Shown here piece after piece: positions 3,647-20,000 of a DNA stretch of 20,000 bases. The DNA lies in IMG/VR virus record IMGVR_UViG_2651869816_000009. One strand, written 5' to 3'. The notes under the pieces are model-generated. The model ran no database searches, was not told the DNA's origin, and saw only the letters and a list, made by a program, of their open reading frames with translations. The position numbers were made by a program, and so were the translations under genes. How positions within the stretch are numbered: the stretch's first letter is position 1; the number at the start of each line of letters is the position of its first letter. Origin of the DNA: an uncultured virus (IMG/VR IMGVR_UViG_2651869816_000009) (taxonomy: Duplodnaviria > Heunggongvirae > Uroviricota > Caudoviricetes).

Positions 3647-3753
3647 TTCCTTCTTTTCCTCTCACACCTGTTTAATAGGGCCATCGGTATTGTTACCATT
3701 GATAACATCAAGATAGATACAGCAATACCTTGCCAGGCTTCTAACGTAGACAT
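3643..3753 (-). CDS. Putative 36-aa membrane peptide (MSTLEAWQGIAVSILMLSMVTIPMALLNRCERKRRK)
   Basis: GGGAGTGA SD; one TM segment plus basic tail; stop overlaps the next ATG. Confidence 0.6.
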   Translation of the reverse strand: MSTLEAWQGIAVSILMLSMVTIPMALLNRCERKRRK

Positions 3754-4399: not shown

Positions 4400-4427
4400 G
4401 AAAAAAGAGACTGTATTAATAGTCTCT
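4400..4427 (-). terminator. Intrinsic terminator after ORF 4416-4754
   Basis: AGAGACT-N8-AGTCTCT followed by TTTTT on the minus strand. Confidence 0.6.
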
Positions 4428-4754
4428 TAATCGTTGCACGATATTTAATTCTACATAGTCGATAGAATCACGAGGAATGCTTACAACATTACCACTACCC
4501 GTCATGCCGTGGATCGTGTCAGCCATGTCAGTTTCATCATCTTTCATTTCTTTATAAATCATCTCTTCAGTGATTGTAACACCTTGTTCTTTTTCGAATT
4601 CCGTGATGTCTTCATACAACATAACAGCGCGCCCGCTTTTTAAATGTACTTGCATTTGAATTTCTCGAATGTGTGTATGATTGTCTCCAGGTTTCTTTTC
4701 TACCTCTGGTTGATCAACCGTTTCTTTTACCTTGTTTTCATTTTTATTTTCCAT
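4416..4754 (-). CDS. Hypothetical protein (112 aa)
   Basis: AAGGAGG SD before ATG 4754 (MENKNENK...); overlaps the upstream ORF stop. Confidence 0.75.
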   Translation of the reverse strand: MENKNENKVKETVDQPEVEKKPGDNHTHIREIQMQVHLKSGRAVMLYEDITEFEKEQGVTITEEMIYKEMKDDETDMADTIHGMTGSGNVVSIPRDSIDYVELNIVQRLRDY

Positions 4755-5010
4755 TTTCCTTTTCCTCCTTATATAGCTTCTTATAACCCTTATCAATGTT
4801 ATGAATGCCTAACAGTGTGCCAACAACGAATAATAACCAATGATACCAGGCGTTCCCGTTCACTACAGTTTGCCAGGCGCTACCGAAAATGATTAAACCG
4901 CATACCTTTTGTAACCAGCCGTTTTTAATATCAATTGTCACACTGATCTTAACGTCTTTCCAAAATGCTTTAGTGAACAATGGTTTTAACTTTTTCAACT
5001 TCTCTTTCAT
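4744..5010 (-). CDS. Hypothetical membrane protein (2 predicted TM)
   Basis: GAGGTGA SD; two hydrophobic segments with basic ends. Confidence 0.75.
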   Translation of the reverse strand: MKEKLKKLKPLFTKAFWKDVKISVTIDIKNGWLQKVCGLIIFGSAWQTVVNGNAWYHWLLFVVGTLLGIHNIDKGYKKLYKEEKENGK

Positions 5011-5042
5011 GTTGTCACCTCTTTTATTTTTTGCTCTTATAG

Positions 5043-5072
5043 AAGAAAAACAAGACTGGCGAAAGTCTTGTT
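5043..5072 (-). terminator. Intrinsic terminator closing the non-coding transcript
   Basis: AACAAGACT-TTCGCC-AGTCTTGTT then TTTCTTCT on the minus strand. Confidence 0.75.
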
Positions 5073-6457
5073 CTCAACTTGTAACTATAAAAGAAATGGT
5101 TTAGTAGGGACTTGAACCCTATCAGACCCGTTTTAAAGGCTCTGTTATACCAGATAGCTAAACCATGATTCCCAGCGATCAACGCCAGGATCATTTTTAT
5201 TCTCCTTAGAGTCGGATATACTTTAGATCGTTATCATCCGTTTCTATCCATTTTGTGTGTGACATGATCGCCTAGTTATCAGTTAGAATCATGTTTTATT
5301 AAACTATCGTATGTTTGATAATAACCTTTGATAGTTATTTACCGTTATAGGACGGTATCACCTGTTAGTAGAACAATAATTACCCACCAATGCAAGTGAG
5401 TTTCTATTGTTATTTGTTTTGTGTTTATAATAGTGTCCAGGTATCTGAAAACAGCTATTAAGAGGTTTCCACACCTCATAAGACGTACAAGGTAAAAAGG
5501 AGGTTGGGCCATGCCTAGCCCAATGTATAATCAAAAATTCCAACGGGGATAAAAATGTTATACAAAAACCTTATACGCCTTATGAGATCATGAAGTCCAT
5601 TAGTAAAACGATTTGTGAGTTACCCTATAGACTTCATTTACCTCATATATGTGTTTGTGTCTCAATAAGTTTGTATATGTCCGAAAGGATCATAAAACAA
5701 GCTATTCAGTTGTATTGGTTTCCTTTAGTTTTCCATCTATGGAGAAGTTTTAAGACTCCTTATTCAGTCTGGTTTTCTGTACGTGTGTTTTCCATCACTT
5801 GAATTTTCGAGACTTTATTGTCATTTGTTACATGATGTTATTTCGCAAAAATACTACACTTTTTACTATGATCTACTTTTAACAGTAGATAAAAAATAGT
5901 AGTAACGGTTTTAACCGTCCCTTTAAAGATAGAAGTAACACTTATGACCTTTCGATCTGGCTTTCTACCCTTAAAGGGAAGGACAAAACGGTTGTCCAAC
6001 CCCACCAACAAGGAGTATCTAACAATGAACAAGTAACCTATCATCTTCACAATGATCTGGAGGTAACCAGCCTCCTTTAAAGGCACAAACGAGAAGAACG
6101 TGTGTGAGTTAGCAAGGTTAATATATATAGCAATTGGAGGTGAACATATATTAAAAACTCGCTTATGCCCTTAAAGGAAGATGTCTCTTCCCTCGATTCA
6201 TTTAAACAGCTTTCACCGTTCCCATTGATTCGATCCATTTCAGAAAACAAGAATTTTACGTATAGACATAGACTTTGAGCAATTATGAAATTAGATGTTG
6301 TTAGCGTATGTGTGAGCAATTACTAACAGTAAGGCGTTTTAACAAGGTTACGAAAACAAACGATGTTAAATGTAGAATATTTTCTCTTGTATATCGAATA
6401 CAAAATTTAATATGTTCTGGTTTTCCGACCAGGTAAGAGAGCGTGTGTCCCTCTTAC
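5045..6457 (-). ncRNA. Large structured non-coding RNA or sRNA cluster (~1.4 kb), family unknown
   Basis: No credible long ORF; sigmaA promoter upstream and terminator downstream; more than 15 hairpins; three 17-23 bp stems whose non-Watson-Crick positions are all G-U on the minus strand; GNRA loops. Confidence 0.7.
5097..5164 (-). tRNA. tRNA-like element / pseudo-tRNA (68 nt, isotype unassignable)
   Basis: Acceptor stem GGTTTAG/CTAAACC+A and perfect T arm TAGGG-TTCAAGT-CCCTA. The D/anticodon region is only 36 nt (about 41 canonical) and imperfect. Confidence 0.6.
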
Positions 6458-6461
6458 AATT

Positions 6462-6490
6462 ACTATAGTAACACCTCTAATTCTATTCAA
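6462..6490 (-). promoter_or_regulatory. SigmaA-type promoter driving the ncRNA region
   Basis: TTGAAT(6490-6485)-17 nt-TATAGT(6467-6462), AT-rich upstream; the predicted +1 begins a hairpin (6457-6433). Confidence 0.7.
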
Positions 6491-6564
6491 CAAGAATTGT
6501 ATACTTTTAGATATTGTTTTTTATAAAGTTGGTTTTAAATTATCAGATAGTTTATTTTGACAAT

Positions 6565-6591
6565 AAAAAAGAGCCCTTGTTATAAGGACTC
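6565..6591 (-). terminator. Intrinsic terminator after ORF 6580-6819
   Basis: GAGTCCTT-ATAAC-AAGGGCTC-TTTTTT on the minus strand. Confidence 0.75.
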
Positions 6592-6819
6592 GACAACTTC
6601 ATTATATGTTCTTTGTTCATGGTATAGCCTAGCTTCAACGTTAACGGGATTTAAACCGTATCTATTAGCAAAACCTACTATCAGTTTCTCTATATCATCC
6701 TCAATCAATACATAACCTTCTTTAGATGGTAATTCATAAGTGTAGTGTTCGTAGATTACCAATAGATCACGATATTCATTTTCCCTCTCGTTTTGTTTAA
6801 TAGTTTTAGATTCATTCAT
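6580..6819 (-). CDS. Hypothetical protein (79 aa), stand-alone unit
   Basis: AAGGAG SD; own terminator; AT-rich upstream region. Confidence 0.75.
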   Translation of the reverse strand: MNESKTIKQNERENEYRDLLVIYEHYTYELPSKEGYVLIEDDIEKLIVGFANRYGLNPVNVEARLYHEQRTYNEVVESL

Positions 6820-7070
6820 GTTATTAATCTCCTTTTGGGTTTATGGTTTTAGTTTTCTTTCGATTTATTTATAAATGGACTTATCCATTAAGGCCAAAAC
6901 ATCAGCGGTTTTTCTTTTAAAATCATTTAACTTCCTTATTATATATATCACGAATATTTTCAATAGTAAAATAATATTTTTTATACATAGCCTTGAACCC
7001 TTGATAACTCTACATTCTTACTTTGTATCACACACTTGACAAGATTTTTGGAATAATATAACAAACGTTG

Positions 7071-7112
7071 ATTCTATGCATTGTGTCAAATTGACACGAT
7101 CGAATAGGTCAA
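7071..7112. repeat. Inverted pair of origin-type iterons (GTGTCA-AAT-TGACACG)
   Basis: Matches 13381-13396 (GTGTCA-TAT-TGACACG). The left arm reverse complement TTTGACACAATGCATAG matches TTTGACACGATGCATAG at 13480-13496 at 16 of 17 positions. Confidence 0.65.
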
Positions 7113-7120
7113 ATTAGTAA

Positions 7121-8011: not shown

Positions 8012-8166
8012 TAACGTAACACCTTCTTTGCAAACTCTTTGTTAACTGTATCCATGCGCTTATTTAAACTTCTTACAAGATCACTTAAATTCAATTTACC
8101 TTCCCTATGTTGCTGTAGTAATGATTCCATCATACTAAGTTGACCGTATACTTTATTTTCATTCAC
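8011..8166 (-). CDS. Small hypothetical protein (51 aa)
   Basis: GTG start overlapping the stop of 8163-8762; open until TAA at 8011. Confidence 0.5.
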   Translation of the reverse strand: MNENKVYGQLSMMESLLQQHREGKLNLSDLVRSLNKRMDTVNKEFAKKVLR

Positions 8167-8762
8167 GAATAATCCCACACTTTCGCTTTTTTGTTGTAGA
8201 TCGCCACCACTAATTGAATTCCATACTTCACTTCAAATAAATGCTTTCTCAAACTGAAATCTCGTGGTATGGCCATTTTGCTTCCTTTTACATCAAAGGC
8301 CACTTTTCCGACTCCTGTTATATCGCACACCAGATCAGGCGTGTATGACTTCTTTCTAACCTTCCTTTTCCCAGCCTGGTTAACAATGCTGGCGATCTCG
8401 TACCCGTCTAATAGATGATACGTTTTGTGCAACTCAATATTTGATACGTGTTTTGTATTCGACATCATGATATAAAAGTCGCGTTCTGTCATAGAATCAA
8501 ACTTGTGACCGTCATATTCCACTTTGACAGCATTGACTTTCTTTCTCGGCTTCTTCTTTGTCTTGAACATACCTTCTATGTCATATTCTTTTTTAAGCCA
8601 CTTAACAGCCGTAGCCTTTGTTCCAGCAACGCCCTTTAAAGTTTCGTTTCCGTCCTCGTTTATTATGTAATATCTATAGGACAACACGTTTTTCTTAATG
8701 CACTCTCTCACCTCAAAGGTAAGAGAGCCCGTTTTATTCATCCAAACTTTATTCAATCTCAT
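8163..8762 (-). CDS. DUF1064-family PD-(D/E)xK nuclease (putative Holliday junction resolvase) with N-terminal extension
   Basis: YDGHKFDSxxExxFY, YTPDL, DVKG and FSLRKHLF motifs. Confidence 0.8.
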   Translation of the reverse strand: MRLNKVWMNKTGSLTFEVRECIKKNVLSYRYYIINEDGNETLKGVAGTKATAVKWLKKEYDIEGMFKTKKKPRKKVNAVKVEYDGHKFDSMTERDFYIMMSNTKHVSNIELHKTYHLLDGYEIASIVNQAGKRKVRKKSYTPDLVCDITGVGKVAFDVKGSKMAIPRDFSLRKHLFEVKYGIQLVVAIYNKKAKVWDYS

Positions 8763-18003: not shown

Positions 18004-18636
18004 ATGCCTAGAAACTTTAAAACAGAAAAAGAAAGACAGATGGCTTTAAAACAATCCGAAAATATTAAACGTTTAATGGAGAAAAAAGGATTCCGCCAAG
18101 TGGATTTGGTTAACGCAACTGGAATTGCACGATCTACAATGTCAACTTATATCAACGCAAAAAGTGTTATACCGATGGTAGCACTTCAAAAAATCGCCGA
18201 CGCTTTAGGTGTTAGCAAGGCTCAAATAGTTGACCTTGATAAGTCGGAGTCAATCGCGGTTATGGGAATAAAAAGATTGCCTATTTACAATAATATTAAA
18301 TGTGAGTATGGAGAAATTGAATTAAATGATCCTTCTGGTTATCTTGATACACCTTTTTCATGGATTGGAAATAACGATCATTTCTATTATGAAGTTCAAG
18401 ATGATAGCATGTTTGGAATAACAGCGGGATCAAAGGCACTTATACACCGTCAATCAGTTATAGAAAATGGAGATATGGCCTTGATCGCCGTAAATAATGA
18501 AGTGTTGATCAGACGCGTTTATAAAGATAAAAATGAAATTACTCTTGATGCATTGATAAGAAAACAAACCATCGATGACAGAAAAACTTTATTCTCTGTT
18601 ATCGGAAAAGTGACAAAGGTTATAGGTGAATACTAA
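18004..18636 (+). CDS. CI-like repressor: XRE HTH plus degenerate S24 peptidase domain
   Basis: RQVDLVNATGIARSTMSTY HTH; DDSM, NGDMALI, RRVYK and VIGKV LexA-like C-terminal domain. Confidence 0.9.
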   Translation: MPRNFKTEKERQMALKQSENIKRLMEKKGFRQVDLVNATGIARSTMSTYINAKSVIPMVALQKIADALGVSKAQIVDLDKSESIAVMGIKRLPIYNNIKCEYGEIELNDPSGYLDTPFSWIGNNDHFYYEVQDDSMFGITAGSKALIHRQSVIENGDMALIAVNNEVLIRRVYKDKNEITLDALIRKQTIDDRKTLFSVIGKVTKVIGEY

Positions 18637-20000
18637 TGAGGTGTGCAATATATAGAAGAGTTTCTACAGATGAACAAGCGGAAAAAGGTCACTCTTTAGA
18701 TAATCAGAAATTCCGTTTAGAATCTTTTGCAATGTCGCAAGGCTGGGAAATAACAGGTGATTATGTAGATGATGGCTACAGCGGTAAAAATATGGAAAGG
18801 CCAGCTTTGAAAAGAATGTTTGCTGACATTGATAACTTTGACGTTATACTAGTTTACAAGTTAGATAGATTCACAAGATCTGTAAGAGATTTAAACGACA
18901 TGTTAGAAACTATCAAGGGTCATGAAATAGCTTTTAAGAGTGTAACGGAAGCGATAGATACAACAACAGCAACAGGAAGAATGATATTAAATATGATGGG
19001 ATCAACAGCGCAATGGGAACGCGAAATGATCTCAGAACGAATAAAAGATGTTCTAGGAAAGTTAGCCGAACAAGGTATATTCCCTAAAGGAAAACCAACG
19101 TACGGTTACAAAATAAAAAATGGCGTAATAAGCATAGATGAAGAAGAAGCTAAAATTGTCAAACTTATATTCGAAAAGTCAAAAACTCTAGGACAACATG
19201 CGGTTTCAAAATACCTTCGAGATAACGGGATATACACCCCTAGCGGTTCGACCTGGATGTCTGGAGGAATTGGACGAATCATAAGAAACCCTTTCTATTA
19301 CGGAGAAATGAAAGTGAATGGTAAACTGATCGCTATTAAAAATGAAGGTTATACACCGTTGATCAGTAAAGAAGAATTCGATCTAGTTAATAGAATTTCA
19401 AAAAGCAGGAATATGAAGAAGACAAAAAGAAAAAGCAATATTATATATCCCTTCAGTGGTATAGCGTTATGCCCACGATGTAACAAACCACTAAGAGGTG
19501 ATAGATCAAAAATTGGCGAAAAATATTACACTTATTACCGTTGTATGAACGCTCGTGAAGGTCGATGTACAATAAAAAGAATAAAAACACAAGTGATTGA
19601 CATTGCGTTCTCTGAATACGTGTCAGGCGCTTTCAACGAGTCTAACATACAAATAGATAATAAAGATGAAAGTATCGCATTAGAAAGAAAGATAGAGGCC
19701 TTAAAAAGTAAGGTAGATAGATTAAAAGAGTTGTATATAGACGGTGATATAACAAAAGTTAGATACAAAGAACAAACAGACGCTATAAACATTGAAATAA
19801 ACTCTATGCAAGATAAAATGTTATCGTTAGATGATGGAAAGATTACAGAAAAAGCTATAGAACAAGCTAAAGAATTGGAAAAAGTATGGTTATTGCTAGA
19901 TGACAAAACGAAAGATGAATCATTAAGAAGTGTATTTGATACAATAACTTTAAAAGAAACTGAACACGGAATAATTATAACAAGTCATTCGTTCCTTTAA
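18636..20000 (+). CDS. int: Large serine recombinase (phage integrase)
   Basis: YRRVSTDEQ catalytic Ser, DDGYSG..RP, YKLDRFTRS, recombinase domain (YGY, NPFYYG), zinc ribbon CPRC...YYRC..C, coiled coil; TAATG coupling to the repressor. Confidence 0.96.
   Translation: MRCAIYRRVSTDEQAEKGHSLDNQKFRLESFAMSQGWEITGDYVDDGYSGKNMERPALKRMFADIDNFDVILVYKLDRFTRSVRDLNDMLETIKGHEIAFKSVTEAIDTTTATGRMILNMMGSTAQWEREMISERIKDVLGKLAEQGIFPKGKPTYGYKIKNGVISIDEEEAKIVKLIFEKSKTLGQHAVSKYLRDNGIYTPSGSTWMSGGIGRIIRNPFYYGEMKVNGKLIAIKNEGYTPLISKEEFDLVNRISKSRNMKKTKRKSNIIYPFSGIALCPRCNKPLRGDRSKIGEKYYTYYRCMNAREGRCTIKRIKTQVIDIAFSEYVSGAFNESNIQIDNKDESIALERKIEALKSKVDRLKELYIDGDITKVRYKEQTDAINIEINSMQDKMLSLDDGKITEKAIEQAKELEKVWLLLDDKTKDESLRSVFDTITLKETEHGIIITSHSFL

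Follow-up and report, generated by a model that had tools for sequence, protein, structure and literature searches.

What does a phage genome carry in 1.4 kb that is left without a credible gene? The DNA analyzed here is a 20,000-nucleotide (nt) stretch of an uncultured virus (IMG/VR IMGVR_UViG_2651869816_000009), hereafter the window, which represents a temperate siphovirus of the Bacillus cereus group that is TP21-L-like (Lwoffvirus). The locus in question is located at positions 5043-6490 on the minus strand, and it is a block poor in open reading frames (ORFs) between the terminator of the early operon and the first late-side gene. A first-pass annotation, made from the letters alone, had proposed that it specifies an undescribed large non-coding RNA (ncRNA) or a polycistronic precursor of small RNAs (sRNAs). 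This proposal is supported by the absence of a conserved ORF, by covariation, by the strand asymmetry of the folding and of the mismatch types, by the negative Rfam searches and by an RNA contig. Our leading explanation, to which we give about an even chance, is that, where the early and late genes of Lwoffvirus meet, the locus forms a non-coding transcription unit that serves both as leader of the late (packaging) operon and as precursor of several stable structured RNAs.

The locus lacks a conserved open reading frame

The comparison set consisted of nine distinct sequences, namely the window, the phages proCM3, TP21-L and KLEB30-3S, and five IMG/VR contigs. One of these contigs, L031, is the sole divergent relative (~74% identical), and the remaining sequences are close relatives. 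The longest ORFs within positions 5045-6490 have 82, 80, 70, 61, 56, 55 and 42 amino acids (aa), and all seven ORFs of at least 40 aa are cut by a stop codon or a frameshift in at least three of the seven aligned relatives. Insertions and deletions (indels) in the locus are often not multiples of three, and one of them, of 4 nt, lies in a hairpin loop. No PHROG match was obtained for any of the five internal ORFs scanned, whereas 12 of 15 flanking ORFs had one. In the published records of TP21-L, proCM3 and KLEB30-3S, assorted small coding sequences (CDSs) are annotated in the locus, and they differ in place and strand. These results confirmed that the locus is non-coding and holds no conserved ORF, as the first-pass annotation had claimed.

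Close to the 3′ end of the RNA, a Shine-Dalgarno (SD)-like box followed by an AUG (5192-5212, minus strand) is kept in all nine sequences of the alignment, with no conserved ORF behind it. The ORF that begins there has 10 aa in three of seven relatives, a short form caused by the 4-nt indel in the hairpin loop, and 55 aa or more in the others, in which it runs through the tRNA-like element described below; its N-terminus is hydrophobic. Hence, with only 10 aa in these three relatives, it does not correspond to the small hydrophobic ORF, conserved and equipped with a ribosome-binding site of its own, that a type I toxin-antitoxin system would have. The box and AUG may act as a ribosome-binding stabilizer rather than as a gene start, and ribosome binding as a means of stabilizing an RNA is the idea known as STAB-SD. 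In the record of KLEB30-3S, a 173-aa CDS (gp57; L003 4356-4877) is drawn that begins at the conserved AUG, traverses both tRNA-like elements as well as the terminator and extends into the downstream gene; this annotation is probably an artefact.

Folding, strand asymmetry and covariation of the minus strand

The first-pass annotation had described the RNA as highly structured, and the folding energies bear this out. In 200-nt folding windows of the minus strand, z-scores of -2.3 to -6.3 were obtained across most of 5000-6500, as against -0.05 to +1.9 in the flanks; within the locus, folding was weak at 5600-5899 (z about +1 to -0.7) and at 6200-6399 (z -0.3). The minus strand was the more stable one in 14 of the 15 folding windows starting at 5000-6400, the exception being 5600-5799. 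The three modules built on long stems (stem modules 1, 2 and 3) had z-scores of -5.4, -4.1 and -6.2, and none of 200 shuffles folded as well. The long stems themselves, already noted in the first pass, can be read directly in the sequence and are the top three inverted repeats (I1-I3) of a strand-neutral search. As first delimited, stem 1 has 23 bp, of which 4 are G-U on the minus strand, stem 2 has 17 bp (2 G-U) and stem 3 has 19 bp (2 G-U), so that all eight non-Watson-Crick positions are indeed G-U on that strand. When the arms of I2 and I3 were examined for transition mismatches, seven A-C (G-U on the minus strand) and no G-T were found on the plus strand. The outer extension of I1 is mixed (three G-T, two A-C and four other mismatches) and is probably unpaired.

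The first pass had also proposed a covariation check among homologs. On a MAFFT alignment of the nine sequences, RNAalifold predicted 390 pairs, with 96.3% of the cells paired. Changes on both sides were observed in 34 of these pairs. Six slid controls gave 5-9 such pairs, and column shuffles gave 10.4 +/- 2.3, with none of 500 reaching 34. When L031 was left out, 21 double-changed pairs remained among eight sequences, against 0-4 in the controls. The best covarying helices are 5979-5963/5934-5918, 5594-5569/5492-5468, the two inner hairpins of stem module 3, and 6174-6158/6093-6077; nearly all of the supported helices are local hairpins. The consensus fold has -550.8 kcal/mol on the minus strand and -485.2 kcal/mol on the plus strand, i.e., it is 66 kcal/mol better on the former, and 393 G-U cells turn into mismatches when the fold is mirrored. 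The locus is thus a chain of independently folding hairpin modules that are kept by compensatory changes on the minus strand.

Transcription and boundary signals

The promoter and the upstream terminator that had been marked in the first pass were both recovered by a consensus scan. The intrinsic terminator of the early/middle operon (6571-6591, minus strand; -10.8 kcal/mol, z -2.6, followed by U6) lies just after a 79-aa ORF (6580-6819). A sigma-A-type promoter follows at 6462-6490 on the same strand, with the -35 hexamer at 6490-6485, a 17-nt spacer and the -10 hexamer at 6467-6462 (9/12 matches to the consensus). In six relatives it is 98-100% identical, and from the early terminator to the late-side genes the scan found no other promoter-like site on the minus strand. 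The downstream terminator claimed at 5072-5043 was missed by the scan, yet it forms a hairpin of -13.3 kcal/mol (z -3.6) with a U-run on the minus strand, it is kept in all nine sequences, and its 10 pairs are formed in 98.9% of the cells. It ends 33 nt ahead of the start codon of the first late-side ORF (4744-5010). Terminator-like hairpins numbered five, against 1.2 expected.

RNA libraries cover the locus. In X1, a small RNA-seq library of a relative, a single contig of 2102 nt begins at position 6447, 15 nt after the -10 hexamer, and by this first base the transcription start would be located approximately at 6447-6457 on the minus strand. The contig represents a form of the locus that is devoid of 5712-5832; it spans 6447 to 4937, crosses the terminator and goes on for 710 nt of genes that differ from those of the window. 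There is no X1 coverage of 6448-6727, and a separate contig lies on 6728-6900. The description "independently transcribed" therefore held for one half: the locus has a promoter and a terminator of its own, but the X1 contig runs through the latter into the next genes. This makes it probable that the RNA serves as the late-operon leader as well.

In a soil metatranscriptome (X4), four contigs of 151-195 nt were placed at 5098-5249, 5465-5604, 5833-6018 and 5996-6190, under a required likeness of at least 90%. They coincide with the hairpin/tRNA-like end and with stem modules 3, 2 and 1, respectively. Eleven further soil RNA runs contain 7-17% of the sampled words, a figure that refers to word content only. 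The end of one X4 contig at 5098, the last base of the acceptor stem of the tRNA-like element, was considered as a processing site and rejected; that contig is one read long, at depth 2.

Modular anatomy of the RNA

Read from 5′ to 3′ on the minus strand, the RNA starts with a domain of four hairpins (6338-6457; 6457-6433, 6432-6417, 6413-6377 and 6370-6338; z -3.65), the first of which begins at the very 5′ end. These first 120 nt are the most conserved part: 113 of 120 bases (94%) are identical in L031, whose other blocks are 46-85% identical except for a 24-nt linker near the 3′ end. A region of variable small hairpins predicted by RNAalifold follows (6193-6337), with 62-70% identity in KLEB30-3S and L031. 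It includes one of the two GAAA-capped hairpins reported in the first pass (6221-6204; the other is at 5957-5946) and the helix 6328-6322/6305-6299, in which two pairs are changed on both sides.

Stem module 1 (6055-6192; repeat I3) consists of a hairpin at 6192-6175, the long stem 6180-6158/6093-6071 (23 bp, 4 G-U), an inner A-U hairpin (6118-6154) that carries ACCUCC in its loop, and a GGAGG/CCUCC hairpin (6059-6075). Among 17 pairs of the stem, two are changed on both sides, and no cell is unpaired. Stem module 2 (5906-5997; repeat I2, direct repeat D1) is built on the long stem 5979-5963/5934-5918 (17 bp, 2 G-U), with smaller hairpins in its flanks (5997-5981 and 5917-5906) and the GAAA-capped one inside. 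Three pairs of this stem are changed on both sides and three on one side, again with no unpaired cell. Judged by their sequences, stem modules 1 and 2 are paralogous, and they share a plan, i.e., a small hairpin, a long stem with a variable apical part and a small hairpin. In TP21-L and L009, an insert of ~54 nt with the T-arm-like motif GGTTCGAATCC replaces the apical hairpin of stem 2 (L002 about 3650-3735), and the stem beneath it carries compensatory changes. At the base of stems 1 and 2 lies a 10-bp box, CCTTTAA(A)GG, which is palindromic or nearly so and invariant in all nine sequences; four of its five matches in the window fall within the locus, against 0.81 expected.

The next block (5712-5832), defined by the alignment, is a dispensable cassette with a local folding z of about 0. 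It is absent in four of eight relatives (proCM3, L006, L007 and L031) and in the X1 contig, is replaced in three (TP21-L, L009 and KLEB30-3S), and is common only to the window and G001. Stem module 3 (5468-5594; repeat I1) has a 25-bp stem, 5594-5569/5492-5468, which includes the 19 bp of the first pass. According to RNAalifold, it encloses two hairpins (5564-5524 and 5523-5504) and a single-stranded segment, ACCUCCUUUUU, at 5504-5494. Two double-changed pairs were found in the outer stem and three in each inner hairpin, and in TP21-L, L009 and KLEB30-3S a 41-nt deletion lies inside the stem, with both arms intact. A series of hairpins then leads toward the 3′ end (5213-5467; 5457-5431, 5411-5372, 5357-5340, 5325-5282, 5267-5243 and 5240-5213). 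Here, 200-nt folding windows have z-scores of -2.5 to -3.1, and the changes are mostly one-sided and G-U-preserving; KLEB30-3S lacks about 80 nt of this series.

The hexamer ACCUCC occurs three times where 0.46 would be expected (P 0.015). According to the predicted folds, a hairpin loop holds the first of these (6141) and an interior loop another (5504), and the third is paired. Close relatives differ by whole cassettes, among them a 121-nt deletion, a replacement of ~150 nt, a 41-nt interior deletion and an insert of ~54 nt, and because of these cassette-like differences we favor a modular precursor over one large RNA.

A tRNA-like slot in a constant 3′ end

The 3′ end has a constant order: the SD-like box with its AUG, a 12-bp hairpin, a tRNA-like element, a 24-nt linker and the terminator. 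The stem of the 12-bp hairpin (5165-5194, minus strand) is invariant in all nine sequences, four of which show the 4-nt loop indel, and no spacer separates it from the tRNA-like element. Hairpin and element together have a z-score of -4.1. The element present in the window, which we term type 1 (5097-5164, minus strand; z -3.1) and which the first-pass annotation had overlooked, has an acceptor stem of 7 bp, a canonical-looking T arm whose loop is UUCAAGU, and a discriminator A. It encodes no CCA, and its D and anticodon regions are aberrant. Its scores are below the Rfam cut-offs, namely 23.9 bits (E 0.055; cut-off 42.5) for mascRNA-menRNA (RF01684) and 16.6 bits (cut-off 29) for tRNA (RF00005), and ARAGORN called no tRNA gene in the window or in eight loci. 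Type 1 was found in eight of the nine sequences. Six of the eight relatives have an identical copy, proCM3 and L007 each differ by one base, and in L031 it is replaced.

A second element, type 2, scores 45.6 bits with the tRNA model in KLEB30-3S and 48.4 bits in L031, and around the anticodon it has 18 nt, as against 9 in the model. Neither type thus combines at least 29 bits, a 7-nt anticodon loop and a call by the tRNA finder. Type 2 follows type 1 in KLEB30-3S and replaces it in L031, always between the same hairpin and the same linker. The 18-nt loop of type 2 (L003 about 4490-4500; L031 505-585, minus strand) contains an 8-nt palindrome, whose sequence differs between KLEB30-3S and L031 while the palindromy is kept; it is possibly a site of RNA-RNA dimerization or of protein binding.

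The linker (5073-5096, minus strand) is invariant, and even L031 agrees with it at 24 of 24 bases. Its predicted pairing partner is 5336-5326 (10 bp); this helix is invariant as well, and hence covariation is uninformative on it. The slot is always filled, and it is filled by unrelated elements, none of which seems able to decode. This suggests that it is the tRNA shape itself that is used, and the simplest use would be as a cutting signal for RNase P/RNase Z.

Relation to known RNAs

No family of Rfam 15 reached its gathering score in the 20-kb window. GOLLD and ROOL, to neither of which the first pass had been able to match the sequence, were absent among the eight matches at E values up to 10 (4900-6700) and at E values up to 1 in TP21-L, KLEB30-3S and L031. 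The sub-threshold matches (plant/animal miRNA precursors, snoR35, nuoG, CLRN1-AS1, RAGATH-7 and Plastid-ycf2) were far under their cut-offs and were taken as a generic likeness among hairpins.

As for position, the closest counterpart discussed here is the late leader of phage lambda, where pR′, 6S RNA and tR′ are subject to antitermination by Q, so that late mRNA arises when the polymerase reads through the terminator, and whose version in Stx phages yields the sRNA StxS. As in lambda, a promoter, a non-coding RNA and a terminator stand directly before the late genes, between the early and the packaging genes. The differences are that the RNA has ~1.4 kb instead of ~0.2 kb, that it consists of many hairpin modules and has a tRNA-like end, that no Q-like protein was recognized among the ORFs scanned with Pfam and PHROGs, and that antitermination is putative. 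In phage HK022, two adjacent stem-loops just after the promoter (put) make the polymerase resistant to terminators, and the abutting hairpins 6457-6433 and 6432-6417 at the RNA start, invariant in all nine sequences, might be their analogs.

Hairpins processed by RNase III are found in the early RNAs of phage T7 and of the Bacillus phage SP82, where they separate protein-coding cistrons. The stems of the locus resemble them in being long and imperfect, with about two helical turns (23, 17 and 25 bp, in line with the ~20 bp or more of mostly continuous duplex expected of such substrates), and cleavage is predicted only; they differ in that they lie in a gene-free stretch. tRNA-like folds within longer non-coding transcripts are known from MALAT1/MEN-beta with mascRNA and from the tRNA-miRNA RNAs (TMERs) of murine gammaherpesvirus 68. 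By analogy, the tRNA-like fold of the locus, which also has long hairpins alongside and whose best Rfam score is with mascRNA-menRNA, could be cut by RNase P/Z. The host, however, is bacterial, the promoter is not internal, cleavage is hypothetical, and 23.9 as against 42.5 bits make this a working analogy and not a membership.

GOLLD and ROOL are large structured RNAs with no function assigned, which occur in phages and prophages beside tRNA genes and assemble into multimers. The locus shares with them that it is large, structured and phage-encoded; it differs in being modular and cassette-variable rather than one conserved multi-junction fold, and its neighbor is an ARAGORN-negative look-alike of a tRNA. 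Membership in rliI (RF01487) was considered and dropped. The match, 33.5 bits (cut-off 45) at E 9.5e-6, was seen in TP21-L only, i.e., in one of five relatives' records at E 1, and the window itself gave none at E 10. This match extends over the full 239 nt of the model and involves the stem-1 module of TP21-L. RliI is a trans-acting sRNA of Listeria that binds the lmo1035 mRNA in vitro and lowers the level of this mRNA when overexpressed (PMC1807966). It is a single chromosomal gene, unlike the phage locus.

The favored explanation and its alternatives

In the explanation that we favor, the polymerase would start at ~6455 and make an RNA of ~1.4 kb, to which the 5′-terminal hairpin and the many stems would give a long life. 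The terminator at 5072-5043 would stop most of the transcripts, and read-through, to which the near-invariant 5′ domain or some phage factor may contribute, would feed the late genes. The tRNA-like element would recruit RNase P and RNase Z, and the 17-25-bp stems RNase III, so that the cuts would yield stable pieces and separate the RNA from the late mRNA; the loops with the anti-SD-like ACCUCC may act in trans on ribosome-binding sites. The role as a leader is proposed because the locus has the only candidate promoter, because its terminator lies 33 nt before the late genes, and because RNA coverage extends across that terminator. The role as a precursor of separate RNAs is proposed because the modules are stable, covarying and exchangeable.

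Several points weigh against this explanation. The RNAalifold structure was fitted to the same alignment from which the pairs were counted, the sequences are related, and the totals are generous; the slid controls preserve this relatedness, and the excess over them is nevertheless large. The 5′ domain, the box under stems 1 and 2 and the type 1 element are invariant or almost so, and covariation cannot test them. Promoter-like sites are rarer than in shuffles (4 vs 12.2 expected), so that the evidence for the promoter comes from its position, its conservation and the RNA contig, not from the scan; in L031, moreover, the -10 hexamer is kept and the -35 hexamer is degenerate. The RNA data are assembled contigs, from which neither strand nor RNA ends nor cleavage sites can be read, and a contig that is continuous across the terminator need not represent a single transcript. 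The absence of soil-RNA coverage over the flanking ORFs is uninformative because their alleles are 72-75% identical and placement required at least 90%, and two raw-read runs (X21 and X22) provided no test, as no reads were placed. Finally, no antiterminator family was found among 29 Pfam-scanned and 20 PHROG-scanned ORFs, many small ORFs being without an assigned function.

A tentative alternative is that the locus is a self-contained gene for a trans-acting ncRNA, or an array of sRNAs, i.e., an "RNA moron" with its own promoter and terminator, which is expressed mainly in the lysogen, is unrelated to the late genes, and acts on mRNAs or proteins of the host or of a competing phage as a regulator, sponge or decoy. 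The bounding promoter and conserved terminator, the pieces among the soil metatranscriptome contigs (with 12 soil RNA runs containing 7-18% of the sampled words) and the ACCUCC loops would fit such a gene, and so would modules that are gained, lost and swapped like cargo and recombination breakpoints at the locus borders. However, the scan showed no further promoter that could serve the late genes, and the X1 contig passes the terminator. Expression in the lysogen is an assumption, and what this alternative denies of the favored explanation is only the leader role.

A bolder form of the favored explanation appears doubtful to us. The locus would then belong to a new class of large phage ncRNA, whose 3′ end is made not by termination but by RNase P at a built-in, exchangeable tRNA look-alike, so that a bacterial virus would have its own equivalent of MALAT1/mascRNA. 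Once released, the hairpin modules (anti-SD loops and products of RNase III) would reprogram host translation or blunt RNA-sensing or tRNA-sensing defenses, and the same transcript would gate the late genes.

It is unlikely that the locus makes one large ornate RNA with a single global fold, analogous to GOLLD/ROOL and forming multimers through palindromic loops or boxes. The size of ~1.4 kb, the phage origin, the tRNA-like neighbor, the palindromic box under stems 1 and 2, the palindromic type-2 loop and the predicted invariant 10-bp long-range helix are what such an RNA might show. In contrast, no GOLLD or ROOL match was obtained in Rfam even at E 10, whole-cassette differences between close relatives are hard to square with one co-evolving fold, and the supported helices are local hairpins almost without exception.

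We also consider it quite improbable that the locus is decaying cargo, i.e., functionless remnants of tRNA or sRNA genes that are transcribed only through their position in the late leader. The tRNA-like elements do resemble degraded tRNAs that ARAGORN leaves uncalled, large parts are dispensable in relatives and the distribution is very narrow; but compensatory and G-U-preserving changes in helices are well above the controls, the tRNA-like slot is refilled rather than lost, and the 5′ domain and linker are near-invariant in a relative as divergent as L031.

There is only a slim chance that the element works at the level of DNA, with the four CCTTTAA(A)GG boxes as operators at which a dimeric regulator controls a late promoter, or with the hairpins as single-strand initiation/replication signals. 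The (near-)palindromic, invariant box that is concentrated here and the replication genes located upstream would be in keeping with this, but the complementarity reaches far beyond the boxes and covaries, and the region, flanked by a promoter and a terminator, is represented in RNA libraries. The G-U mismatches are strand-specific as well, though G-T asymmetry alone is not fully decisive against a structure in single-stranded DNA.

That the locus encodes one or more small proteins, the candidate being a peptide, possibly a type I toxin, behind the AUG at 5212-5192, is hardly credible in spite of the well-spaced SD-like box, the hydrophobic N-terminus and the small CDSs annotated in three phages, since a loop indel reduces the ORF to 10 aa in three of seven relatives, the longer forms read through the tRNA-like element, and the CDSs are inconsistent and lack PHROG matches.

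Distribution and significance

Positions 5000-6600 matched seven phage records with 88-96% nucleotide identity; these records represent five distinct phages (proCM3, BMBtp2, TP21-L, BMBtpLA3 and KLEB30-3S), and the genus Lwoffvirus is assigned in those of proCM3, TP21-L and KLEB30-3S. The locus is present in each of the seven phage records whose TerS is close (87% or more). Among phage records, the type 1 element is confined to these same seven and type 2 to KLEB30-3S. A plasmid search for the locus gave no match, and no GTDB representative genome contained one 21-nt pattern or the 79-aa upstream protein. A metagenome contig search gave a single match, which, with the same length (11,770 bases) and position, is apparently already among the IMG/VR contigs, and five further IMG/VR scans returned the same contigs and L031; one additional hit, L020, was a chance match. 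Within these collections, the known distribution is one small genus with nine distinct sequences.

No description of the locus was found in the full-text literature, a search that left most subscription journals outside its coverage and reached related genome papers at the level of the abstract. In a check of terms, the words non-coding, noncoding, tRNA, intergenic, cos and gp50 were absent from the TP21-L paper, and the abstract of the KLEB30-3S announcement states "no tRNA genes". In our rating, the locus, a structured phage ncRNA that occupies a probable late leader and adjoins tRNA-like elements, is undescribed and is confined to one small genus. It points to a gap in annotation: phage genomes are annotated almost only for proteins, and in five published phages these 1.4 kb are blank or hold inconsistent small CDSs. 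The locus would be a Gram-positive case of a transcribed and covarying RNA that stands ahead of the packaging genes and whose tRNA-like slot can be refilled. These temperate phages, which can be induced from B. thuringiensis, would offer a compact system for the roles of large phage ncRNAs, for the gating of late transcription and for tRNA-like punctuation in the maturation of bacterial ncRNAs, a reach that the narrow distribution limits.

Genome layout and neighboring genes

A serine integrase and a CI-like repressor are encoded on the plus strand at 18004-20000. The minus strand is used throughout from a Cro-like gene (17754) down to the portal gene (769), in the order recombination genes, DnaB-like helicase, many small ORFs, the ncRNA locus, two small ORFs, terS, terL and portal. 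The replication genes therefore lie upstream of the locus, and terS, terL and portal downstream of it on the same strand. In the records of TP21-L and KLEB30-3S, terS begins at base 1 and base 6, respectively, and the TP21-L genome has fixed ends according to its abstract. Because of this, we infer that in virion DNA the locus is at the far right end, and that only circular, concatemeric or prophage DNA brings it together with terS.

The ORFs that flank the locus (79 aa upstream, 6580-6819; 88 and 126 aa downstream, 4416-5010) are divergent alleles, with 72-75% nucleotide and 60-67% amino-acid identity to all relatives. Unlike these adjacent ORFs, the locus, terS and the spacer at 6820-7120 are 88-100% identical to the relatives, and hence recombination breakpoints coincide with the borders of the locus. 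That the RNA is better conserved than its flanks was considered as an argument for selection and dropped: terS (96-98%), the 6820-7120 spacer (88-96%) and orf91 (93-94% where aligned) are similar, and the divergence is limited to the ORFs immediately adjoining the locus.

The 6820-7120 spacer, located upstream of the 79-aa ORF, is a second ORF-free stretch of 300 nt. It holds a promoter-like site at 7042-7014 (minus strand) and a 10-nt inverted repeat at 7080-7100, and as RNA it is unstructured (z about +0.6 to +1.9). Further upstream, at 8163-8762, a 199-aa DUF1064 protein, annotated as hypothetical in published relatives, matches the PHROG "Holliday junction resolvase" (E 1.3e-45).

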